Assembly (NCBI RefSeq): GCF_030013595.1
Contig: NZ_CP122768.1
DNA length: 64,000 nucleotides
From: Escherichia coli
GTDB lineage: Bacteria > Pseudomonadota > Gammaproteobacteria > Enterobacterales > Enterobacteriaceae
Direction: 5' to 3' (one strand)
The notes below the pieces were generated by a model, which searched no databases, was not told the DNA's origin, and was given only the letters and a program-made list of their open reading frames with translations. Each line of letters starts with the position of its first letter. The first letter of the stretch is position 1. Shown piece after piece: positions 5,644 to 31,046 of this stretch. A program made the translations under genes and the position numbers.

Positions 5644-5669
5644 AGCGCTCCTGCGGGAGCGCTTTTTTG
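5644..5669 (+). terminator. dsbB intrinsic terminator
   Basis: AGCGCTCCtgcGGGAGCGCT hairpin followed by TTTTTT immediately after dsbB stop. Confidence 0.65.
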
Positions 5670-6379
5670 TGCACAGAAAACCCCCAGCTAGGCTGGGGGT
5701 TCCGGAAAGCTTTCAGCTTTGAGCCAGTTATTAAAACCCCTTTTGATTTGTTAAAACACCTTGCGGTCTGGCAACTGCAAGTGTCAAACAAGAAATCAAA
5801 AGGGGGTCCCAATGGGGGACGAAAAGAGCTTAGCGCACACCCGCTGGAACTGTAAATATCACATAGTTTTTGCGCCGAAATACCGAAGACTGGCGTTTTA
5901 CGGAGAGAAGCGTAGGGCGATAGGCAGTATTTTGAGAAAGCTGTGTGAGTGGAAAAGCGTACGGATTCTGGAAGCAGAGTGCTGCGCAGATCATATCCAT
6001 ATGCTTGTGGAAATCCCACCCAAAATGAGCGTATCCGGCTTTATGGGATATCTGAAAGGGAAAAGCAGTCTGATGCTTTACGAGCAGTTTGGGGATTTGA
6101 AATTCAAATACAGAAACAGGGAGTTCTGGTGCCGAGGGTACTATGTCGATACGGTGGGTAAGAACACGGCGAAGATACAGGACTACATAAAGCACCAGCT
6201 TGAAGAGGATAAAATGGGGGAGCAGTTATCGATTCCATATCCGGGCAGCCCGTTTACGGGCCGTAAGTAACGAAGTTGAATGCAAATGTCAGATCGTATG
6301 CGCCTGTTAGGGCGCGGCTGGTAACAGAGCCTTACAGGCGCATTTGAAAAACCTCCGGCTATGCCGGAGGATATTTATT
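5664..6379 (+). mobile_element. IS200-family insertion sequence, copy A (about 716 bp)
   Basis: Boundaries defined by where this copy and the inverted copy at 30331-31046 stop matching; contains Y1 transposase gene and terminal hairpin CCCCCAGCtaGGCTGGGGG; starts right after the dsbB terminator T-run. Confidence 0.78.
5812..6270 (+). CDS. tnpA: IS200 Y1 (HUH) transposase TnpA
   Basis: MGDEKSLAHTRWNCKYHIVFAPKYRR...CCADHIHMLVEIPPKMSVSGFMGYLKGKSS...YRNREFWCRGYYVDTVGKN; HxH motif and catalytic Tyr region typical of IS200 TnpA (152 aa). Confidence 0.88.
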   Translation: MGDEKSLAHTRWNCKYHIVFAPKYRRLAFYGEKRRAIGSILRKLCEWKSVRILEAECCADHIHMLVEIPPKMSVSGFMGYLKGKSSLMLYEQFGDLKFKYRNREFWCRGYYVDTVGKNTAKIQDYIKHQLEEDKMGEQLSIPYPGSPFTGRK

Positions 6380-6392
6380 CCTGCCACTATGT

Positions 6393-7661
6393 TTATTTGA
6401 CCCGCAGTAAATCAGAACTTCGCGTTGTATAACGTGGTGAAAGCATAGCTCGCTTCATCTGCCATTGTTGTTGGATCCCCTGCCCGGCAAAATAGAGTGT
6501 TCCTCTGCCCTCTTTAGCATTCAGAGTATCCATTACCGCCATCAATTGCTCACTCCCGGGGCGCGGTGCGTTGTCATCGAATAAATTGAGCTGCGCGACT
6601 CCCTGACTAAAGAAATCCCCCAGCATCACGCCCGCTTTTTGGTAGCGATGGCCCGTTTGCCAGATGGCATCCAGAGATCGCGTAGCGGCGTTAATGATAT
6701 CCCTGCTGTCCTGAGTGGGCGTCAGCAGTTTTACCGACGCGCTATTGCCGTAATAAGGTTCATTGAGCGCAAATGGTGACGTCTTAATAAACGTGGAAAT
6801 AAACCGACAATATTGATGCTCACTGCGAAGTTTTTCCGCCGCCCGGGCAGCGTAACTACAAATGGCCTGCCGCATCGACGTATAATCCGTGATGCGTTCA
6901 CCAAACGAACGGGAACAGATAATTTCCTGCTTTGTCGGTGCAAACTCTTCCAGTTGCAAACAGGGTTCACCGCGCAGTTCACGCACCGTTCTTTCGAGCA
7001 CGACATTAAAATGTTTACGGATAAACCGGATATCTGTATCCGCCAAATCGAGAACGGTTTTGATCCCCATCGCGTCCAGTTTTTTGCTGATCCGCCGTCC
7101 AATCCCCCAGACTTCATCCACGGGGAGAGCAGACATTAATTTACGCTGGCGTTCCAGATTTGATAAATCCACCACCCCACCCGTCTGCCGCTGCCATTTT
7201 TTTGCCGCATGATTGGCAAGCTTAGCCAGCGTTTTGGTCTGGGCGATCCCCACGCCAACAGTAAGATGGGTACGTTGTAGCACCGTTGCGCGAATTTCTC
7301 GGCCAAAATCAGTCAGATCGCGACAATTACGCACACCGGTCAGATCGCAGAATGCCTCATCAATACTGTAAATCTCGACGCGGGGCGATAGCTCTTCCAG
7401 CGTCGACATCACCCGATTGCTCATATCGGCGTAAAGCTCATAGTTACTGCTAAAGCAAACCACGCCACAGCGGCGAAACAGATCTTTTTGTTTGAACCAG
7501 GGATCGCCCATTTTAACGCCCAACGCCTTTGCCTCAGCGTTTCGGGCGATAACGCAACCGTCATTATTCGATAGCACAACCACCGGTTTACCCCATAAAT
7601 CAGGGCGAAACACCGTCTCACAGCTGGCATAAAACGCGTTTACATCACAGAGGGCAAACAT
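6393..7661 (-). CDS. umuC: DNA polymerase V catalytic subunit UmuC
   Basis: 422-aa [44 protein letters not shown]... Y-family polymerase; overlaps umuD stop by 1 nt. Confidence 0.92.
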   Translation of the reverse strand: MFALCDVNAFYASCETVFRPDLWGKPVVVLSNNDGCVIARNAEAKALGVKMGDPWFKQKDLFRRCGVVCFSSNYELYADMSNRVMSTLEELSPRVEIYSIDEAFCDLTGVRNCRDLTDFGREIRATVLQRTHLTVGVGIAQTKTLAKLANHAAKKWQRQTGGVVDLSNLERQRKLMSALPVDEVWGIGRRISKKLDAMGIKTVLDLADTDIRFIRKHFNVVLERTVRELRGEPCLQLEEFAPTKQEIICSRSFGERITDYTSMRQAICSYAARAAEKLRSEHQYCRFISTFIKTSPFALNEPYYGNSASVKLLTPTQDSRDIINAATRSLDAIWQTGHRYQKAGVMLGDFFSQGVAQLNLFDDNAPRPGSEQLMAVMDTLNAKEGRGTLYFAGQGIQQQWQMKRAMLSPRYTTRSSDLLRVK

Positions 7662-8080
7662 CAGCGCATCGCCTTAACGACGTGGATCACCACACCAAAG
7701 ACATCCAGCGTATCTTCGCTACTGATGGTAATGGGTGAATATGCACTGTTCATGGGAATAAGCTGCACTGTCGGGCGTAGTTGCAATTTTTTCACCGTAA
7801 ACTCGCCGTCAACAGCAGCGATGACAATATCACCATGGCTGGCGGTAATAGCGCTATCGACAATCAGTAAATCACCGTCACTAATCCCACCGTCAATCAT
7901 AGAATCACCACTTGCTTTGACGAAGTAAGTCGCGCTGGGATGCTGGATCAACAGTTGATTCAGATCGATGCGCTGTTCAACGTAATCTGCGGCCGGTGAA
8001 GGAAAGCCACACTGAACAAGATCGCTAAATAGCGGAAAAGTCACAATTTCGCGGAGATCCGCAGGCTTGATAAACAACAT
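7661..8080 (-). CDS. umuD: DNA polymerase V accessory subunit UmuD
   Basis: 139-aa [45 protein letters not shown]..., LexA-like self-cleaving peptidase fold. Confidence 0.92.
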
Positions 8081-8098
8081 AATAATCTGCCTGAAGTT

Positions 8099-8118
8099 AT
8101 ACTGTTTTTATATACAGT
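8099..8118. promoter_or_regulatory. LexA (SOS) box of umuDC promoter
   Basis: TACTGTTTTTATATACAGTA: CTGT-N8-ACAG palindrome about 20 bp upstream of umuD start codon. Confidence 0.8.
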
Positions 8119-8311
8119 AGTCTGTTCTTGCCAGCAGATCAATACTGATTCAGGCTATCAATATTTGTCGCTGCATAGACTGCTGATTTTTCGTTCTCTT
8201 ATCCTGTGCTCACGCGGCCTTCTGGCGACGACGCTCATCCAGCAGAAATGAAAAATATCACCCGGCTAAAAATAGAATAGAAGCATTCGCCATAATGACA
8301 TTAAACATTGT

Positions 8312-8325
8312 TTGATATTTATCAT
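8312..8325. promoter_or_regulatory. FNR/CRP-type site in hlyE promoter
   Basis: TTGATatttATCAT matches TTGAT-N4-ATCAA consensus, about 130 bp upstream of hlyE ATG. Confidence 0.5.
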
Positions 8326-8451
8326 ATTAATAGAAATAAAGACATTGACGCATCTCGCCCGCCTAACTATGAATTAGATGAAGTAAAATTCATTAATAGT
8401 TGTAAAACAGGAGTTTCATTACAATTTATATATTTAAAGAGGCGAATGATT

Positions 8452-9363
8452 ATGACTGAAATCGTTGCAGATAAAACTGTAGAGGTAGTTAAAAACGCAA
8501 TCGAAACCGCAGATGGAGCATTAGACCTTTATAATAAATATCTCGATCAGGTCATCCCCTGGCAAACCTTCGATGAAACCATAAAAGAGTTAAGTCGCTT
8601 TAAACAGGAGTATTCACAGGCAGCCTCCGTTTTAGTTGGCGATATTAAAACCTTACTTATGGATAGCCAGGATAAGTATTTTGAAGCAACCCAAACGGTG
8701 TATGAATGGTGTGGTGTTGCGACGCAATTGCTCGCAGCGTATATTTTGCTATTTGATGAGTACAATGAGAAGAAAGCATCCGCCCAGAAAGACATTCTCA
8801 TTAAGGTACTGGATGACGGCATCACGAAGCTGAATGAAGCGCAAAAATCCCTGCTGGTAAGCTCACAAAGTTTCAACAACGCTTCCGGGAAACTGCTGGC
8901 GTTAGATAGCCAGTTAACCAATGATTTTTCAGAAAAAAGCAGCTATTTCCAGTCACAGGTAGATAAAATCAGGAAGGAAGCGTATGCCGGTGCCGCAGCC
9001 GGTGTCGTCGCCGGTCCATTTGGATTAATCATTTCCTATTCTATTGCTGCGGGCGTAGTTGAAGGGAAACTGATCCCAGAATTGAAGAACAAGTTAAAAT
9101 CTGTGCAGAGTTTCTTTACCACCCTGTCTAACACGGTTAAACAAGCGAATAAAGATATCGATGCCGCCAAATTGAAATTAACCACCGAAATAGCCGCCAT
9201 CGGGGAGATAAAAACGGAAACTGAAACAACCAGATTCTACGTTGATTATGATGATTTAATGCTTTCTTTGCTAAAAGAAGCGGCCAAAAAAATGATTAAC
9301 ACCTGTAATGAGTATCAGAAAAGACACGGTAAAAAGACACTCTTTGAGGTACCTGAAGTCTGA
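8452..9363 (+). CDS. hlyE: Pore-forming cytolysin HlyE (ClyA/SheA)
   Basis: ORF 8308..9363 trimmed to ATG 8452; MTEIVADKTVEVVKNAIETADGALDLYNKYLDQVIPWQTFDETIKELSRFKQEY... 303 aa. Confidence 0.9.
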   Translation: MTEIVADKTVEVVKNAIETADGALDLYNKYLDQVIPWQTFDETIKELSRFKQEYSQAASVLVGDIKTLLMDSQDKYFEATQTVYEWCGVATQLLAAYILLFDEYNEKKASAQKDILIKVLDDGITKLNEAQKSLLVSSQSFNNASGKLLALDSQLTNDFSEKSSYFQSQVDKIRKEAYAGAAAGVVAGPFGLIISYSIAAGVVEGKLIPELKNKLKSVQSFFTTLSNTVKQANKDIDAAKLKLTTEIAAIGEIKTETETTRFYVDYDDLMLSLLKEAAKKMINTCNEYQKRHGKKTLFEVPEV

Positions 9364-9569
9364 TAAGCGATTATTCTCTCCATGTACTCAAGGTATAAGG
9401 TTTATCACATTTAAAAACACAGCCGTTTTTTAAAGATTGAGAGTTACCTGTTGATAATAAGGTATCGGGTAACTCTCATTATGACAGAGCGCTTTCAAAA
9501 ACAGGGCTACGAAATGGCGAGCATCCAGACGTATATTAAGAAAGCCCCCATCAACATCTATTAAATTTA

Positions 9570-10031
9570 TCACTGCGCCCAGTCAGGTTTATTTAAGATA
9601 TGATCCTGCCAGTCAATCACTTCTGATTCTTTCACTGCGATATGACGCACAGAAATACGTTCGCCATGCATTGCCGCTTTCGAACCAGTAAGCAGCGGAT
9701 GCCACGCAGGTAAATCTTTACCTTCCGCCAGCAAGCGATAAGCGCAGGTCATTGGCAGCCATTCGAATGTTGGCAGATTTTCACGGGTTAATTTAATGCA
9801 GTCGGGTTCAAACTCGAAACGACGTTCGTAGTTCCGACATTGACAGGTTTTAATATTGAGCTGGCGACAGGCGACGTTAGTGAAGTAGATTTCGTCGGTG
9901 TCTTCATCCATCAGTTTATGCAGGCAGCACTGACCGCAACCATCACACAACGACTCCCATTCCGCATCGCTCATTTCGTCCAGGGTTTTACTTTGCCAGA
10001 AAGGTACATCGCTCATCAGGTGTTCCGCCAT
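9570..10031 (-). CDS. ycgN: UPF0260 protein YcgN
   Basis: [39 protein letters not shown]..., 153 aa. Confidence 0.85.
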
Positions 10032-10107
10032 TACGTTAAAACGCACCTTATAACCAGTCTGGCACAGCGATGCAAGTTTTGCCGCCGCTTTCAGGCGGCA
10101 AAAAGTA

Positions 10108-10767
10108 TTACAAAACGCGAGTTGTCAAAGAATGCCCATCGAAAGTGACTGTCAGCTCATCACCACTTTGCAACGGGCCGACGCCATCAGGCGTGCCTGT
10201 CAGCACAACGTCACCGGCCTTGAGGGTAAAGAACTTGCTCATATAAGCGATCAGCGGAACGATTTTATGGATCATGTCCGCAGTCGTACCTTGCTGGCGT
10301 TGTTCGCCGTTTACGCTCAGGCCCAGCGTTGTATTTTGCGGATCGCCGGTGAATTCCGCCGCGGGAATAAACCCGGAAAGCGGACAAGAGTTATCAAACG
10401 CTTTGGCCTTTTCCCACGGCTGCCCGGCTTTCTTCATTTTTCCCTGAACATCACGCAATGTCAGATCGAGCGCCACGCCGTAACCGGCAATGGCTTTACG
10501 GACATGCTCTTCCGTAGCCTGACGCAGCGTCGCGCCAATCAATACCGCCAGTTCGACTTCATGATGAACTGAACCGAAATCGGATGGGATCGCCAATGGC
10601 TGCCGCAGATCGCACAGTGCCGTTTCTGGTTTAATAAACAGCACTGGCTCTTCGGGCACTGCGCTACCCATCTCTTTAATATGTTTGGCATAGTTACTGC
10701 CAACACAGACTACTTTACTCACCGGATAATCCAGCAGCGCACCTTGCCAGTTGTGATGTTGATACAT
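10108..10767 (-). CDS. ycgM: Fumarylacetoacetate hydrolase family protein YcgM
   Basis: 219-aa [54 protein letters not shown]... FAH-fold. Confidence 0.88.
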
Positions 10768-10838
10768 AACGTTCCCCTCACCTTATCGTGGATATGAAAA
10801 CCCGCGCCGACAAAGATAATGCCACCGCCGGATATCGG

Positions 10839-11165
10839 TTATTTGTTCGTGTCGTCTGTTTTCTGCCCCATGACGGAAAGATGTTGCTTCAGCAAATCTT
10901 CGGGTGGTGGCGGTAACTGCAAATAGTAACCTTGCTCGGTTAATGCCTGTTTAACCTTTTCAATATCGGCATTGACCAGTTTCTTCCGCCCATCCAGCGG
11001 CAGAATCATCGCTAACTGAGGCTGACCAAAACCTTTCATCAGTTCCTCAGGTACACGCGAAAAATCGTCTTTTTTTTCGACATATAAATAGGTCTGGTCA
11101 CGCTTGCTGCTTCGATAAATCACACAAAACATACTTTTACTCTTTAAGATGCCAGGTTTTGGCAT
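10839..11165 (-). CDS. ycgL: Protein YcgL
   Basis: 108-aa [56 protein letters not shown]... Confidence 0.85.
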
Positions 11166-11372
11166 AAGCTAACATCAATGAAACCCGCGCCACAAGCCAG
11201 CCAGCTGTAGATTTCTGCGGTTTGTTCAGTCCATGCGCCCTTAATAAGTGATCCCCCGGCAAAAATGCCGCGCCGGGATTTAACCGAACACAGGAAAGCC
11301 ACTGGAATTCTCCTGTAAGGGATTGTTATATTATAACAGTTCATCGTACTCATTCTGAACAGGAGACTACCT

Positions 11373-11774
11373 ATGAAAATCAAGAGCATCAGTAAGGCTG
11401 TATTATTGCTTGTACTGCTAACCTCCACGAGCTTTGCTGCGGGTAAGAATGTCAATGTTGAGTTCAGAAAAGGCCATAGCAGCGCTCAGTACTCCGGCGA
11501 AATAAAGGGATACGATTACGATACATATACCTTCTATGCCAAAAAAGGTCAGAAAGTGCATGTGAGTATCTCTAATGAAGGCGCTGATACTTACCTCTTC
11601 GGGCCAGGAATCGATGATTCTGTTGATTTATCCAGATATTCCCCAGAACTCGATAGTCACGGACAATACTCACTCCCTGCTTCTGGCAAATATGAGCTGC
11701 GAGTGCTGCAAACCCGAAACGACGCCCGTAAAAACAAAACTAAAAAATATAACGTCGATATTCAAATTAAGTAA
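11373..11774 (+). CDS. pliG: Periplasmic inhibitor of g-type lysozyme PliG (YcgK)
   Basis: 133-aa ORF with signal peptide [31 protein letters not shown]... Confidence 0.88.
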
Positions 11775-11893
11775 ATGTCAACCGACGGGGACTCTCCCCG
11801 TCATAAACGTTAACGCCCCACTCCTCTCTGTCGCTCAAGAGGTTAATGACGAATAGCAGACAATGCCGAATAGAACATAATGTAAACAAGGCA

Positions 11894-12262
11894 TCACTCA
11901 CGACACATAAATAACATCTTTGTGGTGGTTTGATTGATTTTTCCACTCCGCTTACCATCCACACCAAAATAACGATCATCACGACATAATTTTTCTTTAA
12001 CATCGCAAAATACACCGTTAGCGAATGTAAATTCGCTGGGATCGTAGCCTTGTAATGATTGTAAGTTTTCAGCGGCTTTTTCGCCGAGATATTTCCTTGT
12101 TAACTCTGGGGAAATGCCATCTGAGTTCACACAAATATACGGGTCGCAAACAACGCCGCACGCCGGAGATTGAAGTCCGCCAGCGTCATTTCCAGACGCC
12201 ATTGATGAGAACATCATCCCCACACCTGACAATCCGATATAAAAAATACGCATCATATTCAT
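11894..12262 (-). CDS. ycgJ: Protein YcgJ (secreted, Cys-rich)
   Basis: 122-aa ORF MNMMRIFYIGLSGVGMMFSSMASGNDAGGLQSPACGVVCDPYICVN... Confidence 0.82.
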   Translation of the reverse strand: MNMMRIFYIGLSGVGMMFSSMASGNDAGGLQSPACGVVCDPYICVNSDGISPELTRKYLGEKAAENLQSLQGYDPSEFTFANGVFCDVKEKLCRDDRYFGVDGKRSGKINQTTTKMLFMCRE

Positions 12263-12781
12263 AGCACATCCTGATAATCCAACCGTACAACACTTATGCT
12301 CATTTCATCATCAATCCGTAATCAAAACCGCTGACCTGGACGAGTTACGATGACCTGACAGAAGTATCAGACGTCTTCTGCGGTTTCTATGATAGAGCAA
12401 TTCTGTGGCGGATATTAAGATAACGGGTATCTGTTCTTTAATGATGCCGCAAAAAATGGAAAGTTAAGAAAGCCTGGCGTGGTGAAAAAATACACTTGCC
12501 TCAATACTGGATATTTAAACAGGTCTGAAGATGCTGTCACGATTAGGGTGCGGAAAAAGGAAGCGTAAATAAGAACAATCAAAAGTACGGCGGCAATGGG
12601 TTGATTGACAAGGGTATTTTTTAAGCTATGAATCAGCGCCATTTATCACAGAATAGACTTTTACTCTGAATAAATGGGAGGGTGACTTGCCTCAATATAA
12701 TCCAGACTATAACATGCCTTATAGTCTTCGGAACATCATCGCGCGCTGGCGATGATTAATAGCTAATTGAGTAAGGCCAGG

Positions 12782-13477: not shown

Positions 13478-13500
13478 TCCCTTTTTAACAAGGAATTTCT

Positions 13501-14947: not shown

Positions 14948-17900
14948 TCAGAACGACCAGTTCGCACCAGCCACCGCGTTCCACGGGGATTCCACACCGG
15001 CACCATGGCTATACCCCACCCCGAGATGCCCGCTTAACGAACTGCTGAATGAGGCTTTAATACCTGCCTGATATATTCCACGTCTGCCCGACAAATCATT
15101 GACAAAATTACCGTCATTATTCACTTTCACCCGGTTATCATCGACAAATTCTTTGCGCACAGCCGCCTTCAGCCACGGCTCAACTTCCATGCCGTTCCCC
15201 AGACGCATGTTGTAACTCAGCGTTGCGCCCAGTTCACGATATATACTGCGAGTATCGACTGATTTCGATTCCATACCATTGGATAAATGATATTCGGGGT
15301 TATCAGCGGTGAACCCCGTTAACGATGCATACGGCGTCAGGTTCCAGTTACCATCGGTAAATCGCATCCCGGTTTCAATGTGACCGCCCAGCCCGTTGCT
15401 GCGATAACTGCCGTTGGCGGCTCCACCGCTGCTCATTTTACCGGCTACGTTACTTTCAAAGCGGTTCAGCTTCACGATACCGTCCAGATAGAAACCACTT
15501 TCATGTTCCCAGCTGGCATAGCCCCCCAGAGAATAACTGCCCACACTGCCATGTCCTCCACGATCAAAACCGATATGTGAATGGGAATAACCCATAAAAG
15601 CGCCCAGCGTCGCAATCCCCTCAGGAATATCATTACGGCTGTCGATCCCCACTGTCATTCCGGTCAGCGTCTGCTCAAACCCAGCCCCCGCATCGGTGGT
15701 GACATTATTACGGGTGTTATACGTCGCCCCCCAGACATTATTGTTGTGTGGACTCGCTTTCATTATGTTCAACCGCTCGCGAATACTGTTTAGCTCAGCA
15801 TCAAAGACCAACGGTAATGTTGCTGCCATATTGAGTACGGCAGCCGTAGAAGGCGTGATGCGTTTCTCCGGAACGGGTGTCGGCGTTGGCTCGGGAGTCG
15901 GGTCTGGATTTGGATTTGGATTTGGATTTGGGTTCGGATTTGGATTTGGATTTGGATTTGGATTTGGATTTGGGTTTGGATTTGGATTTGGATTTGGATT
16001 TGGGTTCGGATTTGGGTTCGGATTTGGGTTCGGATTTGGGTTCGGGTTCGGGTTCGGATTTGGATTTGGGTTGACATTATTAGTCAGGTTCCAGTTGCTG
16101 TTGCCGTCGCTTTTCAGGACATACTCATAGGTCCCAAGATCAACGAAACCGCCGGTATTGCCCAGCGAAAACGACGCATCCCCTCCCCCTGTTTTCACCA
16201 GCGTCATCGCATCGTCAGACTGAGGGCTGACGCCGGTATCCTGAACAAAGATTTTAAAATTACCAGTGGCATTGTTGTTGACGACCAGTTGATCGCCCCG
16301 GGAGCCTGCAACGTTGGTATGCAGGTAGAAATTACCGCTGCCGGAAAGTTCACTGGTGGTCAGCGTATTGTAGATATCGTTAGTTGTGGCAGGCGCTGAT
16401 AAATAAACATCACCGTCGTTGAGTAGCAAACTGTTTACTCTATATTCGCAGTTGCTGGTGCCTGCACAGGAATTATTGCTGTTAAGCCAGACACTGCCCC
16501 GGCTGGCAGCCGTCAGGTCGGCAAGCGTCGTATCGACACCATTTCCCAGAGTTAATGTCGCGCTATCGGTAATCCGGACCGCCCCTTCAAGTTTTACTGG
16601 CGTAACATTATCCCGTGGCGTCATTAACGACAGGCTTCCTGTCGCGCCACTGACCGATGCATTCGCCAGCGTACCTGCGTAGACGATTGCCGTCCCACCA
16701 GAGACCTGTAGATCTTCTGCCCGGGCCAGAGCCTGAAACTCATCTTTTGACCGCCCAAGGGTATATTGCCCACCAGAGTTAACCTTTGTGGCGGAGTCCT
16801 GACCCAGGTTTTGCATTGCACCACCCTTGTCAACCGTGGAGTCACGGGCTTCGGTACCTGCTAATACCAATAAATTACCGCCATTTTCCAGCAACATATT
16901 GGTCGCTAAATTGCTGGCAATGGAAAAGGTGCCGTACTGGTGCGTACCGCTGATTTCAATACCGTTAGCCGTGCTCGTCTGGAGAGCGGCACCGCTGTTC
17001 TGGACGATATCTGTCGCTTTGCCATTATCGTTGACTGTCAGCGTTCCGCCTTCATTGATCGTTGTTTTTATTGCCTCTCCGTTAGCTGAAACTGTTTGTA
17101 TTCCGCCGTCGTTAATTGTTGTCTCATTTGCCACACCCTCGACGATTTGTTCACCGCCAGTGAGCGTCGTGCCTGTCGCAGTGGCTTTTGTTTTGACGAT
17201 CTCCCGACCGCCCGCATTGACCTGTGTTTTGGCGGAAGTGGTGTCTGACTCCACGGTTAACACGCCGCCATTTGTCAGCAGGATATTGTTCGCCGCACCC
17301 TGCTCGATGCTGAACGCGACGCCATCAGCGCGTGTCCCTGTGACCCGCGTCGCCCTGGTGGTTGCAACCAACGCGCCCTGACTACTCTGCTGTATCCCCG
17401 TTGCGCTGCCTTTCTCCCGCACATCGAGTATGCCGCCATTGTTAAGTCTGGTGGTATATGCTACAGCCTCCTCGTGGACAATCAGCTTACCGCCAGCATC
17501 AACGATGGTATCTACCGCCGAGGTTTGAGCTACGACCGTCAGTTGGCCGGTATTTTCCAGCACAACATGCTCAGCCCTGCCTCCGGTAATAGTGAAGTGA
17601 GATGACCTCTGGTATCCATCAATATCAGTCCCCGCGCCCGTGTTGGCAACTAAAGCACTCCCCGTGTCCAGGTAAACCCCATGTGCGATACCGCCGGTAT
17701 CGACAATCAGCGTGCCTCCGGCACGAATATTGCTGCCAGTTGCCGTACCTCCTTTCTCAACAACCTGCTTGCTCCCGGAAGAGATATTTGTTGTGTCAGC
17801 TTTCCCGCCGCTCTTGATATTTTGCGTGCCACTGTTGATATTAGTTCCCGTAGCAATACCATGATTATAAATATTCTGTGTACCACCATTAATGATGGTA

Positions 17901-23100: not shown

Positions 23101-24624
23101 TCACTCAACCACAACCTTCACCTTCGGTTTAGAAAGGATAATTTTGACCAAGTCGATGTATGTTACCGGTTTATAGAAATAATAACCCTGCTGAAATGTG
23201 ATATTATTTTGATTCAGATAGTCAAGTTGTTCTTTCGTTTCGACACCTTCAGCGACGATACTGATCGAAAGTTTACGCGCCAGATCCAATACACAATCCA
23301 GAATCCGAGTTGATTCTGGGTCTGCGTTTACGCGGCCAACGAAACTGTGATCAATTTTGATATAATCAATATGCAGGTCATGCAGATAAGAAAGCCCTGA
23401 GTAGCCAGTACCGAAATCATCCAGCGCGATGACAAAACCATTTTCATGCAGAATGTTCAACCGCTGAACCAGACTTTCATCAACATTTAATGGCTCACGC
23501 TCGGTAACTTCCAGAACGAGGTTTAAATCGCGACGGGTAAAACTGTCACGGTAATTTAAGCACTCGTCGACAAATGTCGGCGAAATAATATGCGAGGCGC
23601 TAAAATTAATCCCAATATGAAAACCTTCCGGCAGTTTACTCGCGATAGCGTTCATCTGTCTGGCAACCTGATTCATGAGGCTTTGCGTAAGCGGAAGGAT
23701 TAATCCGGATTTTTCAGCAAGTGGAATAAATGCCGCGGGTGATATATATCCACCGTGGGGGTGTTTCCAGCGGGCTAACACCTCAACTCCCCGCAATGTC
23801 CCTTCCCGACCATTTACCACAGGTTGGTAAAAAGGGACGATCTCCCCATTATTTATAGCCCGTCGCAGGATCTCTTCAGGCGTTGCGCTTTTATTGAAAT
23901 ACCTATCAAGCAGCAAAGCAGCGGCGCAGGCGATTAACAGAATAAATATCAATATCCCAAAGCCTTTATCGATAAGTCTGTAGAAGCTAAAGAGTGGTGG
24001 CGGGTTAAAGATAATAGTGAAATTATATTTTGTGGAGTGAACCTTCTCGGTATAGGGATAACGTCCATTAAGCGTCATCACATCACCCGTAGGTCCAATA
24101 ATGTCATCCGCCACGCGTAATACATACCTTACCCCTTTCAAGGGTACATTAAGCGCCCCGCGAATATGCTGATCACTTATCGTAACCAAAATGCGCGTAT
24201 CTGCAAATTGGCTCTGATAGAGCAGGATAGGTAATCTATTAACGGTGTCGATTGCCGGAGCCAACAGTAAATTACTGTCCGGGAAAACAGGAATACGAGA
24301 CAGCAGGACCCGATTCCCCGGTAAGGATGTACACCAGACCGTTCCCTGTTTGAGAATGATGATTGTGCGCAGGTGAGGTTTCAGAGCTGCTTCAGTGCCA
24401 AGCTGATATTGCTCCTCGAGGTCGCATTCCTTCCCGGCAATGTTAACCGCTGTTTGAGTCGCCTGTGACGCTTCTTCAAGTATATGATTGATATTGTTGG
24501 CGGCATATCTCGCTCCCGCCAGGTACTCTGCTTTTGCGGAATACCAGAGCTGGATGTTCAAAATAGCGACACCGGTTATAAACAAGCATATCGCAATGAA
24601 GATGGGTATGAGTGTATTGCGCAT
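23101..24624 (-). CDS. pdeG: c-di-GMP phosphodiesterase PdeG (YcgG), CSS-EAL type
   Basis: 507-aa ORF with N-terminal TM helix and C-terminal EAL domain (...EVLARWKHP..., ...IALDDFGTGYS...). Confidence 0.85.
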   Translation of the reverse strand: MRNTLIPIFIAICLFITGVAILNIQLWYSAKAEYLAGARYAANNINHILEEASQATQTAVNIAGKECDLEEQYQLGTEAALKPHLRTIIILKQGTVWCTSLPGNRVLLSRIPVFPDSNLLLAPAIDTVNRLPILLYQSQFADTRILVTISDQHIRGALNVPLKGVRYVLRVADDIIGPTGDVMTLNGRYPYTEKVHSTKYNFTIIFNPPPLFSFYRLIDKGFGILIFILLIACAAALLLDRYFNKSATPEEILRRAINNGEIVPFYQPVVNGREGTLRGVEVLARWKHPHGGYISPAAFIPLAEKSGLILPLTQSLMNQVARQMNAIASKLPEGFHIGINFSASHIISPTFVDECLNYRDSFTRRDLNLVLEVTEREPLNVDESLVQRLNILHENGFVIALDDFGTGYSGLSYLHDLHIDYIKIDHSFVGRVNADPESTRILDCVLDLARKLSISIVAEGVETKEQLDYLNQNNITFQQGYYFYKPVTYIDLVKIILSKPKVKVVVE

Positions 24625-24959
24625 TCACTTGTCCCGGCCAAAGGGTTTAATACATAAAAATGACATTCATTCGCTCGCGCTGGCGTCTACAGAGAGCATG
24701 GTAGAGAGCATCACAAATATCCACGCCCAAGGTAAAATTTTCTCCATCTTCATCTAACCTATTAATTATTGAGCATAATGTAGGCAGAATTAAACAAATT
24801 AGGCGGGATATCAGGCGTCAAGAATGGAAAACGAGTGCTCGCCATTCTTGTTTTCTCCCTGATATTGTGGATATATTAAGAAAGCATAACGCCTGAAATG
24901 CTCACTTTGCACCAACATGGCGATACATCAGATCTTTATTCTGAAAACTTACACAAGTT

Positions 24960-25208
24960 CTAAGAGAGCATGGATTCCCTGTCATTAATAATGATATCCG
25001 TTAGTGTAGTCTTATGCATTTCAATGTACTGCAAGATTTGCAGATAGAGATCAGAAAGAATCACACTAGTTTCATCTTTTAAACGCAAGCGTAAAGCCTG
25101 ATCAATAATATGACTATCAACATATCCATGCGTCATGAACACCTCCCTCTCGAGATTTTTAAACAAAGCACATTGAAAAATAAATCTCTCTGGGATTGAA
25201 TTATTCAT
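24960..25208 (-). CDS. ymgC: Protein YmgC
   Basis: MNNSIPERFIFQCALFKNLEREVFMTHGYVDSHIIDQALRLRLKDETSVILSDLYLQILQYIEMHK..., 82 aa. Confidence 0.8.
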   Translation of the reverse strand: MNNSIPERFIFQCALFKNLEREVFMTHGYVDSHIIDQALRLRLKDETSVILSDLYLQILQYIEMHKTTLTDIIINDRESMLS

Positions 25209-25320
25209 GTCAGCCTCGTAGGAATAGTGACCCAATAAAATTATGCTGTGTATAGTCTAAAGCGACAGACAAAAATAAGATGACTGAGTTTTCTATAAAC
25301 TTATACTTAATAATTAAAAG

Positions 25321-25587
25321 TTACATATCATCAGCTGTGTATCGCAACACGATTTCCAGTGTTTTTCTAATCACATCAGCTTTGAGAATATCACTTGTTG
25401 TTTCCAGAGAGTGTATCAGACTTAAGATAATATTTTTATTATTAACATTATCGCCTGAAAGCATTAAATTGGTCACAGCCTGCCCTAACACAGCTGACTC
25501 TTCTTCTAACAAATTACCTGAACTACGAAAGTAGCTTGATAACGCTTTATCAGTTATTGCATTATGAATTGTAGTATCTTCAAGCAT
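25321..25587 (-). CDS. ariR: Regulator of acid resistance/biofilm AriR (YmgB)
   Basis: 88-aa [65 protein letters not shown]... Confidence 0.85.
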
Positions 25588-25615
25588 GGTAACCTCTCAT
25601 CTTACTTATGAAATT

Positions 25616-25888
25616 TTAATGTATTCTGTTTATTTTCTTACCATTGAACATACTTTTATTGTCAGCTATCGCTGTTCTTCTGTTTGGCTCTCCTGTATCA
25701 CTGTTGCTAAAATCACGAATTATGCTGTCAATTAAATCTCGTCGGAAAGCAGTTTCCTCAGCCGATTTCATTACGAGTAATTGCTTAATAAGAGTCTGTA
25801 ACGAAAAATTTATCTTCATGCGCAGTATATGGAGCACCGCCTGGCCAGTAATTTCATATTTTATACTTTCATTATCAGATGTCTTCAT
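25616..25888 (-). CDS. ymgA: Connector protein YmgA
   Basis: 90-aa ORF MKTSDNESIKYEITGQAVLHILRMKINFSLQTLIKQLLVMKSAEETAFRRDL... Confidence 0.82.
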   Translation of the reverse strand: MKTSDNESIKYEITGQAVLHILRMKINFSLQTLIKQLLVMKSAEETAFRRDLIDSIIRDFSNSDTGEPNRRTAIADNKSMFNGKKINRIH

Positions 25889-25930
25889 AACGACTTCATA
25901 GATAACCTGTTAAATAATCAGGCTGTTGCA

Positions 25931-26167
25931 TTATTCAAAAAGCAACCCAATTAGTGCATTATAATGTTTCTGTTCCTCTTCCCCTGTCGCTTGTTCCAGT
26001 CGGCAAAGAAGTTTGGCACAAAGCGACTTTCGACTCAGATTACGTCCATCTTTCAAAATCTCAGTCACAATTTCCCCGAGAGTTTCCTGCTGAGTAGGCA
26101 AGTTAGCTTTTGCAAAGTAACGAGTGATTGCTCCCGCAGAATCTAAAGTCACTGAATTTTGATGCAT
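25931..26167 (-). CDS. ycgZ: Connector protein YcgZ
   Basis: 78-aa ORF MHQNSVTLDSAGAITRYFAKANLPTQQETLGEIVTEILKDGRNLSRKSLCAKLL...; first gene of ycgZ-ymgA-ariR-ymgC operon divergent from bluF. Confidence 0.82.
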   Translation of the reverse strand: MHQNSVTLDSAGAITRYFAKANLPTQQETLGEIVTEILKDGRNLSRKSLCAKLLCRLEQATGEEEQKHYNALIGLLFE

Positions 26168-26480
26168 GCTACGCCTCTGTTAAAAATGTTAATCAATGTT
26201 AAGTGAGGTAACAATAGCAAACTTGTACGAAATATGTGTACAGAATGATAAGTTAATTTTTTGCATTTAGTGCTAATACATATATAACAACAGGTTATGA
26301 TAAAAAATATTGCATCATTTAAATGACAACCTATACAAGAATTTTCGCCAACTCATCTTCAACTTTTTCCATTTTTTATCAATGTAAAGAAACAGTTATG
26401 TTTTGGTATTAAAAGAAAGACACCGGAAGATATGTCTGTTACCGTCTTACTCTCGCCTCTCCCATAACCCTGGACAGTTA

Positions 26481-27692
26481 ATGCTTACCACCCTTATTTA
26501 TCGTAGCCATATACGTGACGACGAACCTGTCAAAAAAATCGAAGAAATGGTTTCGATAGCAAATCGCAGGAACATGCAGTCTGACGTAACAGGGATCTTA
26601 CTGTTTAATGGTTCTCATTTTTTCCAGCTTCTGGAAGGTCCGGAAGAACAGGTTAAAATGATATATCGGGCTATATGCCAGGATCCACGGCACTATAATA
26701 TTGTTGAGCTGCTGTGCGATTACGCGCCTGCTCGCCGTTTTGGCAAAGCGGGAATGGAATTATTTGATTTGCGCCTGCACGAGCGAGATGACGTTTTACA
26801 GGCCGTATTCGACAAAGGCACATCAAAATTTCAGCTAACTTATGATGACAGAGCGCTACAATTTTTTCGTACTTTTGTCCTTGCAACCGAACAAGCAACC
26901 TATTTCGAGATCCCTGCCGAAGACTCCTGGCTTTTTATCGCTGACGGATCTGATAAAGAACTTGATTCCTGTACCCTTTCACCAACTATAAACGACCACT
27001 TTGCCTTTCATCCTATTGTCGATCCCTTATCGCGGCGGATAATCGCTTTTGAAGCCATTGTGCAAAAAAATGAAGACAGCCCGTCAGCTATAGCGGTTGG
27101 GCAGCGTAAAGAAGGGGAAATCTATACAGCGGATCTCAAAAGTAAGGCGCTTGCATTCGCGATGGCACACGCACTTGACCTCGGTGATAAAATGATTTCA
27201 ATCAATCTATTACCTATGACCCTGGTTAACGAACCTGACGCAGTCTCTTTTTTACTTGATGAAATAAAGGCCAATGCTCTGGTGCCTGAACAAATCATCG
27301 TTGAATTTACTGAAAGTGAAGTCATATCTCGGTTTGATGAGTTTGCAGAAGCGATTAAATCGCTTAAGGCTGCCGGTATCAGTGTAGCAATTGATCATTT
27401 TGGCGCAGGTTTTGCCGGTTTGTTACTCCTGTCACGCTTCCAGCCTGACAGAATTAAAATCAGTCAGGAATTGATTACCAATGTTCATAAAAGCGGGCCA
27501 CGGCAGGCAATTATTCAAGCGATCATAAAATGCTGTACATCACTTGAAATTCAAGTCAGTGCTATGGGCGTGGCAACACCAGAAGAGTGGATGTGGCTTG
27601 AATCCGCAGGAATTGAGATGTTTCAGGGAGATCTGTTTGCTAAAGCTAAATTGAATGGTATCCCTTCAGTTGCGTGGCCAGAGAAAAAATAA
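26481..27692 (+). CDS. bluF: Blue-light sensor BluF (YcgF), BLUF + degenerate EAL domain
   Basis: ORF trimmed to ATG 26481: MLTTLIYRSHIRDDEPVKKIEEMVSIANRRNMQSDVTGILLFNGSHFFQLLEGPEEQV..., 403 aa. Confidence 0.88.
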   Translation: MLTTLIYRSHIRDDEPVKKIEEMVSIANRRNMQSDVTGILLFNGSHFFQLLEGPEEQVKMIYRAICQDPRHYNIVELLCDYAPARRFGKAGMELFDLRLHERDDVLQAVFDKGTSKFQLTYDDRALQFFRTFVLATEQATYFEIPAEDSWLFIADGSDKELDSCTLSPTINDHFAFHPIVDPLSRRIIAFEAIVQKNEDSPSAIAVGQRKEGEIYTADLKSKALAFAMAHALDLGDKMISINLLPMTLVNEPDAVSFLLDEIKANALVPEQIIVEFTESEVISRFDEFAEAIKSLKAAGISVAIDHFGAGFAGLLLLSRFQPDRIKISQELITNVHKSGPRQAIIQAIIKCCTSLEIQVSAMGVATPEEWMWLESAGIEMFQGDLFAKAKLNGIPSVAWPEKK

Positions 27693-27896
27693 TTTTCAGC
27701 ACATTATTTCACATGATTTCAGTAAATCATCGTGAAAATGAATACGTTATGTTTAAATTTAATCCACATTAAAAATAATGTTTCATTCAATTTAGCTGAA
27801 ATCTTATTTATACTTTGTACAATTTTAGCGTATATTGTACAAAGTATTATTGGGTCGTGTACAGGCGACGGAGATTTGTGACCGCAAGGAGGAATT

Positions 27897-28628
27897 GTGG
27901 CTTATTACAGCATTGGTGATGTTGCTGAACGTTGCGGGATTAATCCTGTCACTCTCCGGGCCTGGCAACGCCGCTACGGTTTGTTAAAACCACAGCGCAG
28001 TGAAGGCGGACACCGACTCTTTGATGAAGAAGACATACAACGCATCGAAGAGATCAAGCGTTGGATAAGTAATGGCGTCCCTGTAGGCAAAGTTAAAGCA
28101 TTACTGGAAACCACCAGCCAGGATACGGAAGATGACTGGAGCCGCCTGCAAGAAGAGATGATGTCAATTCTTCGTATGGCTAATCCTGCCAAACTACGCG
28201 CGAGAATTATTTCACTGGGTCGAGAGTACCCAGTAGATCAATTGATTAATCATGTTTACCTTCCTGTTCGCCAGCGTCTCGTGCTTGATCACAACACCTC
28301 CCGCATTATGAGCAGTATGTTTGACGGCGCATTAATTGAATACGCAGCAGCCTCGCTTTTCGAAATGCGCCGTAAGCCCGGTAAAGAAGCCATTCTGATG
28401 GCGTGGAATGTTGAAGAGAGAGCACGATTGTGGCTGGAAGCATGGCGTTTATCATTGTCAGGATGGCACATTTCTGTTCTTGCTGATCCCATTGAAGCGC
28501 CGCGCCCGGAACTGTTCCCAACGCAAACATTGATTGTCTGGACAGGCATGGCACCAACGAGAAGGCAAAACGAACTTTTACAACACTGGGGTGAGCAAGG
28601 TTATAAAGTCATCTTTCATGCCCCCTAA
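27897..28628 (+). CDS. bluR: MerR-family repressor BluR (YcgE)
   Basis: 243-aa [59 protein letters not shown]..., MerR HTH. Confidence 0.88.
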
Positions 28629-28848
28629 TTTCACCTTTATCCCGCCCCTTAGACAGAATCTTATAATCTGAACCCACAACAGCGTTTGTACCGGAGCTGG
28701 TCCGTTGCAAAATGCTCACCGGGAGAATTCAGGTAATCCCCCTTTCACACTTTGTACATATCACAGCCAAAGGACAGACCAGATTGAAGTGGTAAAACCG
28801 ATCGTGCACACTACGCAGTCTCACAACTAACAAGAGGTTATTATCCTG

Positions 28849-29253
28849 ATGGATCAGGTTGTTGTTTTTCAAAAGATGTTTGAGCAAGTGAGAAAAGAGC
28901 AAAACTTCTCCTGGTTTTATTCAGAATTAAAACATCACCGTATTGCACATTACATTTATTATCTGGCTACGGATAACATCAGAATTATTACTCACGATGA
29001 CACGGTTTTGTTATTAAGAGGAACCAGGAACCTGTTAAAAGTTAGTACGACCAAGAACCCTGCTAAAATAAAAGAGGCCGCATTGCTTCATATTTGCGGA
29101 AAATCAACATTTCGGGAATACTGTTCAACACTGGCAGACGCGGGCGTTTTCCGGTGGGTTACTGATGTTAATCATAACAAACGCAGTTACTACGCCATTG
29201 ATAATACGCTTTTATATATTGAAGATGTAGAAAATAATAAACCATTAATCTAG
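28849..29253 (+). CDS. ycgX: Protein YcgX (DUF1398-like)
   Basis: 134-aa ORF MDQVVVFQKMFEQVRKEQNFSWFYSELKHHRIAHYIYYLATDNIRIITHDD...; position between bluR and iraM. Confidence 0.75.
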   Translation: MDQVVVFQKMFEQVRKEQNFSWFYSELKHHRIAHYIYYLATDNIRIITHDDTVLLLRGTRNLLKVSTTKNPAKIKEAALLHICGKSTFREYCSTLADAGVFRWVTDVNHNKRSYYAIDNTLLYIEDVENNKPLI

Positions 29254-29462
29254 CTAAAGTTGGATGCTTAAAAAATGCTTCATAATTCAGTAAGGCATTA
29301 GCATAATGGAAATAAAAGTGCAGAGACTATTCATATGGATGAGTAATACTATCTTTTTATTGCCACCCATAAATAATCACCAGATCAATACTATCAACTT
29401 GATATTTGAAATGTGATCACTTGACTTTTGATACGTTATTTTATAGCGGTTAACATATTTAT

Positions 29463-29513
29463 AAAAAACAACGGGCGTGCCATACGCCCGTTTCAATACT
29501 TAACGCACATGTG
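29463..29513. repeat. Third, diverged copy of the icd 3'-end/terminator (att-associated) element
   Basis: aaaaACAACGGGCGTGccATACGCCCGTTTCAATAcTTAACgcACATGTg aligns with 31042-31090 and 58582-58630 (icd terminator hairpin plus last icd codons). Confidence 0.7.
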
Positions 29514-29958
29514 TTTTGGTTTAGTCATCATCCGGTTATATGTATTTTAGCCAGGAATGGGTTAAACCATTCCTATATAACTAAAAAATTGAAACCTTAT
29601 TCTCATGTCATGCTTATATTCGTCATTATCGTTATATAAAAAGGCCAACCATAATGTTTAGCAAATTGGCACAAAGTAGTATAAAGGCTATGTTTTAATT
29701 ACAGGATGTTCAGTCATTTGAATGTATAACATTTTAGCTAAACAAATCTAAAACGAAGTGAATAATTTAATGTTTTCACTAAATCTCATTTTGTTTAATA
29801 TCTATTGAGATTTCTTGCTTTAAATTTTGTTTTATATAAACAATGGTTTTAATTTTTAATTAATTTGTTTTTTTGAGAGGGTAATATACTCATATGCAAA
29901 ATCAAGAAATAAACATCCTAATGAACCATATTAAATACCGTGGGATAAGACATAACAA

Positions 29959-30282
29959 ATGAAGTGGATAGTAATTGACACGGTAATTCAACCTACATGC
30001 GGCATATCTTTTTCAGCCATATGGGGTGATATGAAAATGATCATCTGGTATCAATCTACTATATTTCTCCCTCCTGGAAGTATATTTACACCGGTTAAGT
30101 CTGGTATTATCCTTAAGGATAAAGAATACCCTATTACTATTTATAACATCACACCATTCAACAAGGATTTATGGAGTTTACTCAAAAGCAGTCAAGAGTG
30201 TCCTCCAGGAGAAAGCGAAATAACAAATAAATGTTTACATAATAGTTGTATTATAAAAATATGCCCATATGGACTCAAGTAA
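29959..30282 (+). CDS. iraM: Anti-adaptor protein IraM (stabilises RpoS)
   Basis: 107-aa [65 protein letters not shown]..., AT-rich context. Confidence 0.88.
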
Positions 30283-30330
30283 TGGTCTTCATATAAATAT
30301 TCTCGACATGATATTAATAATATCCACATA

Positions 30331-31046
30331 AATAAATATCCTCCGGCATAGCCGGAGGTTTTTCAAATGCGCCTGTAAGGCTCTGTTACCAGCCGCGCCC
30401 TAACAGGCGCATACGATCTGACATTTGCATTCAACTTCGTTACTTACGGCCCGTAAACGGGCTGCCCGGATATGGAATCGATAACTGCTCCCCCATTTTA
30501 TCCTCTTCAAGCTGGTGCTTTATGTAGTCCTGTATCTTCGCCGTGTTCTTACCCACCGTATCGACATAGTACCCTCGGCACCAGAACTCCCTGTTTCTGT
30601 ATTTGAATTTCAAATCCCCAAACTGCTCGTAAAGCATCAGACTGCTTTTCCCTTTCAGATATCCCATAAAGCCGGATACGCTCATTTTGGGTGGGATTTC
30701 CACAAGCATATGGATATGATCTGCGCAGCACTCTGCTTCCAGAATCCGTACGCTTTTCCACTCACACAGCTTTCTCAAAATACTGCCTATCGCCCTACGC
30801 TTCTCTCCGTAAAACGCCAGTCTTCGGTATTTCGGCGCAAAAACTATGTGATATTTACAGTTCCAGCGGGTGTGCGCTAAGCTCTTTTCGTCCCCCATTG
30901 GGACCCCCTTTTGATTTCTTGTTTGACACTTGCAGTTGCCAGACCGCAAGGTGTTTTAACAAATCAAAAGGGGTTTTAATAACTGGCTCAAAGCTGAAAG
31001 CTTTCCGGAACCCCCAGCCTAGCTGGGGGTTTTCTGTGCACAAAAA
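30331..31046 (-). mobile_element. IS200-family insertion sequence, copy B (inverted relative to copy A)
   Basis: Reverse complement of 30331-31046 matches 5664-6379 essentially base for base; encodes an identical TnpA; one end abuts the icdC terminator hairpin. Confidence 0.8.
30440..30898 (-). CDS. tnpA: IS200 Y1 transposase TnpA (second copy)
   Basis: Protein identical to the ORF at 5812..6270. Confidence 0.88.
   Translation of the reverse strand: MGDEKSLAHTRWNCKYHIVFAPKYRRLAFYGEKRRAIGSILRKLCEWKSVRILEAECCADHIHMLVEIPPKMSVSGFMGYLKGKSSLMLYEQFGDLKFKYRNREFWCRGYYVDTVGKNTAKIQDYIKHQLEEDKMGEQLSIPYPGSPFTGRK

Follow-up and report, generated by a model that had tools for sequence, protein, structure and literature searches.

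In the 64-kb stretch of Escherichia coli DNA analyzed here (hereafter the window, meaning the whole stretch at its full length), two copies of an insertion sequence (IS) lie in opposite orientations around a block of some 24 kb, each of them beside a terminator. This raises the question of what the element is, how its two copies came to occupy these positions, and whether they bear on the block that they enclose.

Identity and boundaries of the element

A repeat search of the window found a single pair of long inverted repeats, 5664-6379 (+) and 30331-31046 (-), with arms of 716 nt and a spacing of 23,951 nt; no other long inverted repeats were found in the 64 kb. After comparison with empty sites, the mobile unit was delimited to 711 bp in each case (Table 1), and the outer 5 nt of each arm (TTTTT) proved to be the T-tracts of two unrelated terminators. 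The first-pass annotation of this DNA had described two essentially identical, inverted IS200 copies. The precise alignment agrees, being 100% complementary over the 716 nt, and the two 711-bp units are 100% identical in opposite orientations. The pair thus stands while the ends originally assigned do not, as each left end had included 5 nt of flanking T-tract.

The assignment to IS200 also held, with support from Pfam, NCBIfam and Rfam. The sole ORF of the element, intact in both copies and unaccompanied by tnpB, encodes a TnpA that matches Pfam Y1_Tnp (PF01797, E=9e-37, profile positions 2-121 of 121) and NCBIfam transpos_IS200 (NF033573, 144 bits, cut-off 55), and that contains both H61-I-H63 and Y125-x3-Q129. 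The RNA layout of the left end, comprising a terminator hairpin, a 5′ UTR stem-loop and the art200/STnc490 region, agrees with that published for IS200, in which a terminator hairpin at nt 12-34 is the counterpart of the left-end hairpin of copy A (PMC4513863). The left and right subterminal hairpins differ in sequence, and A-rich bases are found 5′ of both (CAGAAAA and TGAAAAA). In a terminator scan, the right-end hairpin of copy A was terminator-like on both strands. Terminal inverted repeats are absent, with GTGCAC at one end and TTTATT at the other.

Table 1. Coordinates of the two IS copies, their parts and the surrounding features in the window.
Feature	Position	Strand	Basis or remarks
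dsbB intrinsic terminator, target of copy A	5644-5668	+	Stem 5644-5663 plus T-tract; terminator-like in the scan; fold -10.1 kcal/mol, z=-3.6
IS200-group IS, copy A, 711 bp	5669-6379	+	Empty site in L001 and L129 reads GCGCTTTTTT directly followed by CCTGCC
Left-end subterminal hairpin, copy A	5679-5701	+	10-bp stem, 3-nt loop; ssDNA fold -11.7 kcal/mol, z=-3.7
STnc490 (art200/tnpA 5′ UTR region), copy A	5679-5802	+	Rfam RF01405, 146.4 bits, gathering score 56
tnpA of copy A, 152-aa Y1/HUH transposase	5812-6270	+	Pfam, NCBIfam, H61-I-H63 and Y125-x3-Q129
Right-end subterminal hairpin, copy A	6352-6370	+	8-bp stem, -10 kcal/mol; followed by ATATTTATT, the element end
Block between the inverted copies, umuC to iraM, 23,951 bp	6380-30330		Collinear with and 99.9% identical to HCP5S3_I2
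Site C, paralogue of the icd terminator, unoccupied	29464-29492	-	44-nt repeat, 91%; terminator-like
IS200-group IS, copy B, 711 bp	30331-31041	-	Empty sites used for comparison of the flanks: L002 and L129
Right-end hairpin, copy B	30340-30358	-	Terminator-like on both strands
tnpA of copy B	30440-30898	-	Same ORF as in copy A
STnc490, copy B	30908-31031	-	Rfam RF01405, 146.4 bits
Left-end hairpin, copy B	31009-31031	-	Inside the STnc490 match
icdC terminator, target of copy B	31042-31070	-	Stem 31070-31048, then GTTTTT; terminator-like in the scan; -11.5 kcal/mol, z=-4.4
icdC, displaced icd 3′ end	31043-31257	-	215-nt repeat, 97% identical to 58582-58796

Insertion sites and recency

Copy A is located in the convergent spacer between dsbB and umuC. 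The last position of the dsbB ORF is 5636, and the T-tract of its terminator, ending at 5668, directly touches the left end of the IS; at the opposite side, the element ends 13 bp before the umuC stop codon, which starts at 6393. With 5669-6379 removed, the sequence aligns to that of the nearest relative without gaps and at 100% identity. Among 5426 complete E. coli genomes, this site was uninterrupted in 5417 and filled in one, Z0117EC0056, where the inserted copy has a mosaic structure with IS200C-type bases at 551-667. Copy B is located downstream of the icdC remnant and adjacent to iraM. An ORF within icdC (31094-31246) corresponds to the Icd C-terminus and is annotated in relatives as a truncated dehydrogenase; the T-tract of the icdC terminator extends to 31042, and the left end of the IS is at 31041. 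These locations, including both terminator contacts and the 13-bp gap, are those that had been proposed at first pass. The anticipated absence of target duplication was confirmed at site A, where the junction is clean. At site B there is likewise no duplication, but the junction lacks 2 nt relative to a clean insertion: the empty allele reads TTTTATT and the window reads TTTTT-IS, a net gain of 709 bp.

The window junction at site B (TTTTT-IS-TATGTGG) is the same as in two alleles filled by IS200C (L126 and L127), and junctions at the icd terminator show net gains of 709, 710 or 712 bp. We considered a 709-nt unit (T+G...GGATATTT) as well as a 1-nt shift of the frame; neither fits the empty sites A and C, and the deficit at B remains. 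The icd-terminator site carries an insertion in 215 of the 5426 genomes, in these cases of the 96%-identical IS200C subtype, and site C is occupied by IS200C in Z0117EC0056, L125, L126 and L127, the insertion in Z0117EC0056 being clean and without target duplication. IS200 has landed repeatedly at the icd terminator as well as at its paralogue. In approximately 150 genomes, icd-IS200C-ymgL was found in one piece, an arrangement that might be taken for an IS200-mediated deletion of iraM. However, 1039 genomes that lack iraM and have a single terminator carry no IS, and insertion into this state explains icd-IS200C-ymgL equally well, so we do not claim a deletion.

The nearest relative, HCP5S3_I2, is 99.9% identical over the 24-kb block and has IS200 at neither end, with 0 mismatches in the flanks over about 4 kb at site A and 2.2 kb at site B. 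Since both sites are empty in so close a relative, both copies are recent. The element belongs to a sequence subtype (TnpA WP_000502112) distinct from IS200C (WP_000526135), and over its full length it shares 96% identity with IS200C copies and 87% with Yersinia IS1541. The 5426 E. coli genomes contain 10,269 IS200 places in all, and PGAP has annotated copies 100% identical to the present element in over 200 genomes of the species; those behind ybiJ, fdnI and oppF lie directly after a hairpin and T-run in convergent spacers.

The block between the copies

In agreement with the gene content first assigned to it, the block contains, according to the annotation of the 99.9%-identical relative, umuDC, hlyE, ycgJ-N, minCDE, autotransporters, pdeG, ymgA-C/ariR, bluF, bluR, ycgX and iraM. 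The window is collinear with the nearest relative and with the K-12 gene order, and the block is in its ancestral orientation in the sequenced molecule. The orientation of each element follows the strand of its terminator, and dsbB and icdC face each other, which accounts for the inverted arrangement of the copies. It is a reasonable prediction that RecA-dependent recombination between such copies could invert the 24-kb block, and RecA-type rearrangements driven by copies of IS1541 are on record for Y. pestis (PMC12755819). A search for the inversion isomer (a query joining the dsbB flank, the IS and the iraM flank, at least 80% coverage) gave no match in 5426 complete genomes, a result with almost no power because only Z0117EC0056 carries copies at both ends; in that genome the block is collinear and not inverted.

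Insertion behind terminators in the IS200 clade

We analyzed 112 distinct left flanks obtained by a scan of genome contigs (Yersinia, Vibrio, MAGs and others). T was present at position -1 in 99 of them, at -2 in 109, at -4 in 93, at -5 in 107 and at -6 in 92 (about 83-97%), giving the consensus TTTNTT immediately before the insertion point. A perfect stem of at least 5 bp was found in 80% of the flanks; the corresponding values were 14.5% for random positions and 12.9% for TTTTT runs. When the flanks were compared with 912 intergenic-like TTTNTT sites located outside ORFs of at least 100 aa, folds of -10 kcal/mol or better were found in 95-96% and 19%, respectively (p=1.5e-31, Mann-Whitney test). 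The association with terminators is general, and that with hairpins very strong in the IS200 clade, although its extent could be inflated by survivor bias, the flanks being those of copies fixed in genomes. The insertion point is nearly constant within the T-tail, and T continues at +1 in 21 of 36 cases. A fixed distance from stem to cleavage, such as the 9 nt of the right end, was not supported, as the spacing ranged from 0 to 9 nt, depending on the way in which A:T pairs were counted. In Y. pestis, tandem copies directly follow the right end of another copy, with right end and left end joined exactly, which suggests that the right end, too, can serve as a target. The head-to-tail junction has the sequence expected either of a circle junction or of an insertion next to a right end.

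The first-pass annotation had attributed the terminator-adjacent positions to hairpin-targeted insertion behavior known for IS200/IS605 elements. This wording is only partly accurate. The association is real, and a recent preprint has reported it for the family, with terminators upstream of the insertions (10.1101/2025.07.22.666184); in the established mechanism, however, a left-end guide pairs with a target of four or five nucleotides, and the hairpins that are recognized are the element's own (PMC5934647).

Discussion

The locus is very probably explained by one IS200-group element that transposed twice in the recent past, each time without target duplication and directly 3′ of a terminator T-tract. 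By analogy with IS608 and ISDra2, TnpA would mobilize the top strand in single-stranded form. The A-rich stretch immediately before the left-end hairpin (CAGAAAA) may pair with the T-rich target, whose consensus TTTNTT nearly equals the element's own right-end cleavage motif, TTTATT, and a stable hairpin just upstream may be a second, strong determinant of where copies occur. Landing behind a terminator is nearly harmless. The upstream terminator is retained and no ORF disrupted, the right-end hairpin gives the convergent gene a terminator-like structure, and tnpA remains shielded from read-through. We tentatively suggest that TnpA could capture terminators as look-alikes of its own right end, with a GC hairpin, a short spacer and TTTNTT in common. 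If this is the case, target choice would depend on structure plus motif, unlike the motif-only choice of IS608 and ISDra2; terminators would constitute a defined safe harbor on either replication strand; and the odd junctions at the icd terminator may represent register-slipped cleavage in T-rich motifs.

Alternatively, a T-rich pentanucleotide may suffice, with purifying selection leaving only the harmless copies behind terminators and with no targeting of hairpins. The A-rich CAGAAAA and TGAAAAA are suited to base pairing with T-rich motifs in the manner of the IS608 guides (PMC5934647), our data consist of fixed genomic copies rather than de novo events, and the variable spacing between stem and insertion would also be consistent with this explanation. 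We nevertheless consider it unlikely, given that motif-matched sites outside ORFs rarely have a strong upstream fold (19% against 95-96%), that the precision of the insertion point within the T-tail is not expected from selection alone, and that the tandem copies target a right-end hairpin with TTTATT.

Two further explanations concern the history of the copies rather than their targets. Copy B could be an older IS200C at the icd terminator whose internal sequence was replaced, through gene conversion, with that of a window-type copy. Its junction, identical to those of IS200C-filled alleles, is what one would expect in that case, and the site A mosaic of Z0117EC0056 indicates that conversion between IS200 subtypes does happen. 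Conversion would, however, have had to extend to all 27-29 subtype differences, from position 150 to 667, and a window-type copy was present at site B in none of the genomes of the collection (best 97.5%). We regard this origin as quite improbable mainly because site B is empty in the nearest relative, which shows 0 mismatches in the 2.2-kb flanks. An artefact of assembly, in which one of the copies would be a misplaced or mispolished repeat, is far less credible still. Perfect identity over 711 bp is a typical product of consensus polishing of repeats, and polishing could account for part of the 100% identity of the copies; yet the unique flanks of each copy agree with known genomic neighbors at every base, IS200 is present at both positions in independent complete genomes, and the junctions are structured exactly as in hundreds of other copies.

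The source genome is little affected: the insertions break no gene, both neighboring terminators are kept and the block has its normal orientation. The element is a known one, behaving as expected. What the locus adds is a well-dated movement of IS200, which has been described as almost dormant, with two identical copies acquired since the 99.9%-identical relative split off, and an illustration of the precision with which IS200 lands behind terminator hairpins. Together with the block between them, which holds minCDE, umuDC and the bluRF/ymg biofilm genes, the two copies form a potential inversion cassette. Our survey of flanks quantifies terminator-adjacent insertion in the IS200 clade and could guide biochemical work on whether the transposase reads the hairpin at all.

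Comparison with known systems

The closest counterparts are IS200/IS200C of Salmonella and E. coli and IS1541 of Yersinia pestis, which share the size of about 710 bp, a single Y1/HUH tnpA, the lack of terminal inverted repeats, and a left end with a terminator hairpin, a second stem-loop in the 5′ UTR and art200/STnc490. We found no essential difference from them, other than a dsbB/umuC position that is nearly unique (1 of 5426 genomes). IS608 of H. pylori and ISDra2 of D. radiodurans similarly have two subterminal hairpins and insert 3′ of a short conserved motif without duplication (PMC5934647); in the present element, putative A-rich guides 5′ of both hairpins match the T-rich cleavage motifs. 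In IS608 and ISDra2, base pairing selects TTAC or TTGAT, and a hairpin at the target is not reported to be required, in contrast to the present element, with a hairpin before about 96% of its targets. They also prefer the lagging-strand template. Throughout the window, the + strand has a negative GC skew, from which we infer the - strand to be the lagging-strand template; copy B would be on it, whereas the oppositely oriented copy A would be on the leading-strand template, contrary to that rule (n=2 copies).

Other mobile elements seek out hairpins as well. Group IIC introns insert at intrinsic terminators. As proposed here for IS200, an extragenic GC-rich hairpin serves as the landing mark, with near-neutral insertions, for IS that target REP hairpins (IS1397/ISPpu9-type; ISPpu9, PMC8450116) and for RAYT/REP systems. 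TnpA also gives a weak profile match to the RAYT proteins (PMC8266576). These hairpin-seeking elements rely on retrohoming or on DDE or IS110-type transposases, whereas IS200 uses a Y1 HUH enzyme and inserts after the T-tail and not inside the palindrome.

IS200 copies and their boundaries

Exactly one long inverted repeat is present in the window, its arms separated by 23,951 nt. Each arm contains one 152-aa ORF encoding a Y1/HUH transposase that is full length by Pfam (PF01797, E=9e-37) and scores 144 bits with NCBIfam NF033573 (cut-off 55). It has HIH at residues 61-63 and Y125-x3-Q129, and each arm matches Rfam STnc490 (146 bits). Folding gave unlike subterminal hairpins at the left and right ends. 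This is the published IS200 layout (PMC4513863), in agreement with the first-pass annotation, which had proposed two inverted, essentially identical IS200 copies. Copies with 100% identity occur in many E. coli genomes, where PGAP labels them "IS200/IS605 family transposase".

The empty dsbB/umuC spacer reads GCGCTTTTTT|CCTGCC both in O158:H23 and in the nearest relative, HCP5S3_I2. When exactly copy A was removed, the window aligned to this relative over 3.9 kb with no gaps and no mismatches, so the mobile unit is 711 bp long and target duplication is absent. The unit starts with GTGCACAG and ends with GGATATTTATT, with a cut point uncertain by up to 2 nt owing to the terminal TT. This comparison, which had been suggested for defining the insertion point and checking for duplication, settles the absence of duplication at this site and places the insertion point to within those 2 nt. 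The five T's included in the repeat are part of two unrelated terminators and not of the element. The annotation had also placed copy A against the dsbB terminator and just short of the umuC stop, and copy B against the icdC terminator; all three placements hold (see table).

Features of the region (window coordinates)
Feature	Coordinates	Strand	Remarks
Inverted-repeat arms	5664-6379 / 30331-31046		716 nt, 100% complementary
dsbB end	5636
dsbB terminator	stem 5644-5663, T-tract to 5668		fold -10.1 kcal/mol
IS200 copy A	5669-6379	+	ends 13 bp before umuC stop codon
Rfam C0299 sRNA match	8140-8218	-	112 bits, just past umuD
Degenerate tandem repeat	15850-16102		6/12/18 nt, GGATTT/GGGTTC units; 13 overlapping 91-nt copies
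Direct icd-terminator copies	29464-29507 / 31042-31085		44 nt, 91%
IS200 copy B	30331-31041	-
icdC terminator	stem 31070-31048	-	adjoined by copy B
icdC	31043-31257
Insert in icd	31258-58581		~27.3 kb; GC higher (0.53-0.55)
icd 3′ end	58582-58796		215-nt repeat of icdC, 97% identical

At the icdC junction, the empty allele (GTTG-TTTTATT-TATGTGG, identical in the nearest relative) is replaced by GTTG-TTTTT-[IS]-TATGTGG, a net gain of 709 bp where 711 were expected. Net insertion at this site (window 31041-31046/30331; loci L124-L127 of other genomes) varies among genomes (709, 710 or 711 bp). L126 and L127 have the window's junction with IS200C, a 96%-identical subtype, and the 709-bp form is therefore seen with two subtypes; L124 is the clean product, TTTTATT[IS]; and the right junction of L125 has an additional T, as does that of the dsbB/umuC copy of genome Z0117EC0056. 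Other boundary models for the element failed to reconcile all sites. The 2-nt deficit possibly reflects register-slipped cleavage in T-rich motifs, or a change after insertion.

icdC is the displaced 3′ end of icd, lying across the insert from its counterpart. The insert together with the repeat has the hallmarks of an e14-like prophage that integrated into icd. The direct terminator copies flank iraM-ymgK (~1.58 kb), and in 1039 complete genomes, among them Nissle 1917 and ATCC 11775, iraM is missing and only one terminator is present, so the iraM module is indel-like and bounded by terminator repeats. The arrangement icd-IS200C-ymgL occurs in ~150 genomes. The tandem repeat lies within a ypjA/ehaD-like autotransporter gene, for which the annotation of the nearest relative gives a frameshift.

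Age, distribution and potential for inversion

The 24-kb block from umuC to iraM is collinear with and 99.9% identical to that of HCP5S3_I2, which lacks both IS200 copies and the insert in icd; both copies were thus gained after the split from that relative. This late arrival and the mutual identity of the copies indicate recent transposition of IS200, which is usually described as nearly dormant (PMC4513863). HCP5S3_I2 carries ISVsa5 (IS4-like; L129 4942-6150) between umuD and hlyE, absent from the window, so each lineage has gained a different IS in the block.

Of 5426 complete genomes, 5417 have an uninterrupted dsbB/umuC site, and in one, Z0117EC0056, it is filled. The icd-terminator/iraM site was empty in 3818 genomes and filled in 215, the resident being IS200C in every genome examined, which shows 27-29 differences to the window copy; the closest match to IS plus iraM flank reached 97.5%. 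The paralogous icd terminator, empty in the window, holds IS200C in several genomes. The Z0117EC0056 dsbB/umuC copy (NZ_CP098201.1, 35657-36367) differs from the window copy at 7 positions and is mosaic, with a window-type left part and IS200C-type bases at 551-667, a pattern that indicates gene conversion between IS200 subtypes. In this genome, IS200C also occupies the two icd-terminator paralogues.

The block is in the ancestral orientation in the window. A composite query (dsbB flank, IS, iraM flank) had no complete match among the 5426 genomes, only one of which has copies at both ends, and these differ at 22-23 positions. In Y. pestis, IS1541 copies serve as the homologous sequences in RecA-type rearrangements (PMC12755819), and exchange between subtypes is evident in the mosaic copy; inversion between copies A and B, as the annotation had envisaged, is therefore a plausible prediction.

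Terminator adjacency and target choice

A pattern scan with the left-end hairpin, using one genome per species, gave 120 loci; after BLAST against the element, 112 distinct left flanks were taken, excluding tandem ones, from Y. pestis, Vibrio, Dickeya, Brenneria and MAGs labelled Mailhella, Bacillota and Oxalobacter. T occupied positions -6, -5, -4, -2 and -1 in 83-97% of flanks, with -3 variable (consensus TTTNTT|). A perfect stem of at least 5 bp whose end is no more than 12 nt from the insertion point was present in 80% of flanks, compared to 14.5% of random positions and 12.9% of TTTTT runs from the same loci, and 96% folded at -10 kcal/mol or below, versus 19% of 912 TTTNTT sites outside long ORFs (p=1.5e-31). 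Identical-subtype copies behind ybiJ, fdnI and oppF, three more E. coli sites, gave the same hairpin/T-run picture. Tandem Y. pestis copies lie directly behind the right end of another copy, and this end, a GC hairpin followed by ATATTTATT, is terminator-like on both strands in a simple scan. A preprint (10.1101/2025.07.22.666184) independently reports that no IS family has a stronger signal of this kind than the terminator-like sequences upstream of IS200/IS605. The left-end hairpin, and in part the element, was also found in MAGs labelled Bacillota, Peptococcaceae, Mailhella, Desulfovibrio, Oxalobacter and Saccharibacteria (L004-L079; taxa are MAG labels), often at contig ends and again right behind a hairpin and T-run; this spread may be a real host range or may come from contaminated bins.

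The annotation had invoked hairpin-targeted insertion. Adjacency to terminators is strong in our survey, but the family mechanism, derived from IS608 and ISDra2, is one of short-motif guide pairing: TnpA binds the element's own subterminal hairpins, and a guide immediately 5′ of the left hairpin base-pairs with the 4-5-nt target and so selects it (PMC5934647). In the window's element, A-rich stretches lie on the 5′ side of both hairpins (CAGAAAA and TGAAAAA); by analogy, such guides would fit the T-rich cleavage motifs, TTTNTT at the target and TTTATT at the right end. A putative further requirement for a hairpin has statistical support. The terminator could be recognized as a look-alike of the element's right end, or the T-tail beside a folded hairpin could be accessible in single-stranded DNA. 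Survival of harmless insertions only could also account for part of the association. Neither copy interrupts an ORF, and the T-tracts of both upstream terminators are kept. Read on the other strand, the hairpin of the right end is followed by TTTTTCAAAT, 22 nt beyond the umuC stop and 58 nt beyond that of iraM, so convergent transcripts run into a terminator-like structure.

The interest of these findings lies in recent IS200 activity, a potential inversion cassette and a clean quantitative link to terminators. Plus-strand GC skew is negative throughout the window, making the minus strand the inferred lagging-strand template; on this assignment, and for two copies, copy B conforms to the family orientation rule whereas copy A does not, and orientation in the window follows the strand of the terminator. 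The element is already known and behaves as its clade does.
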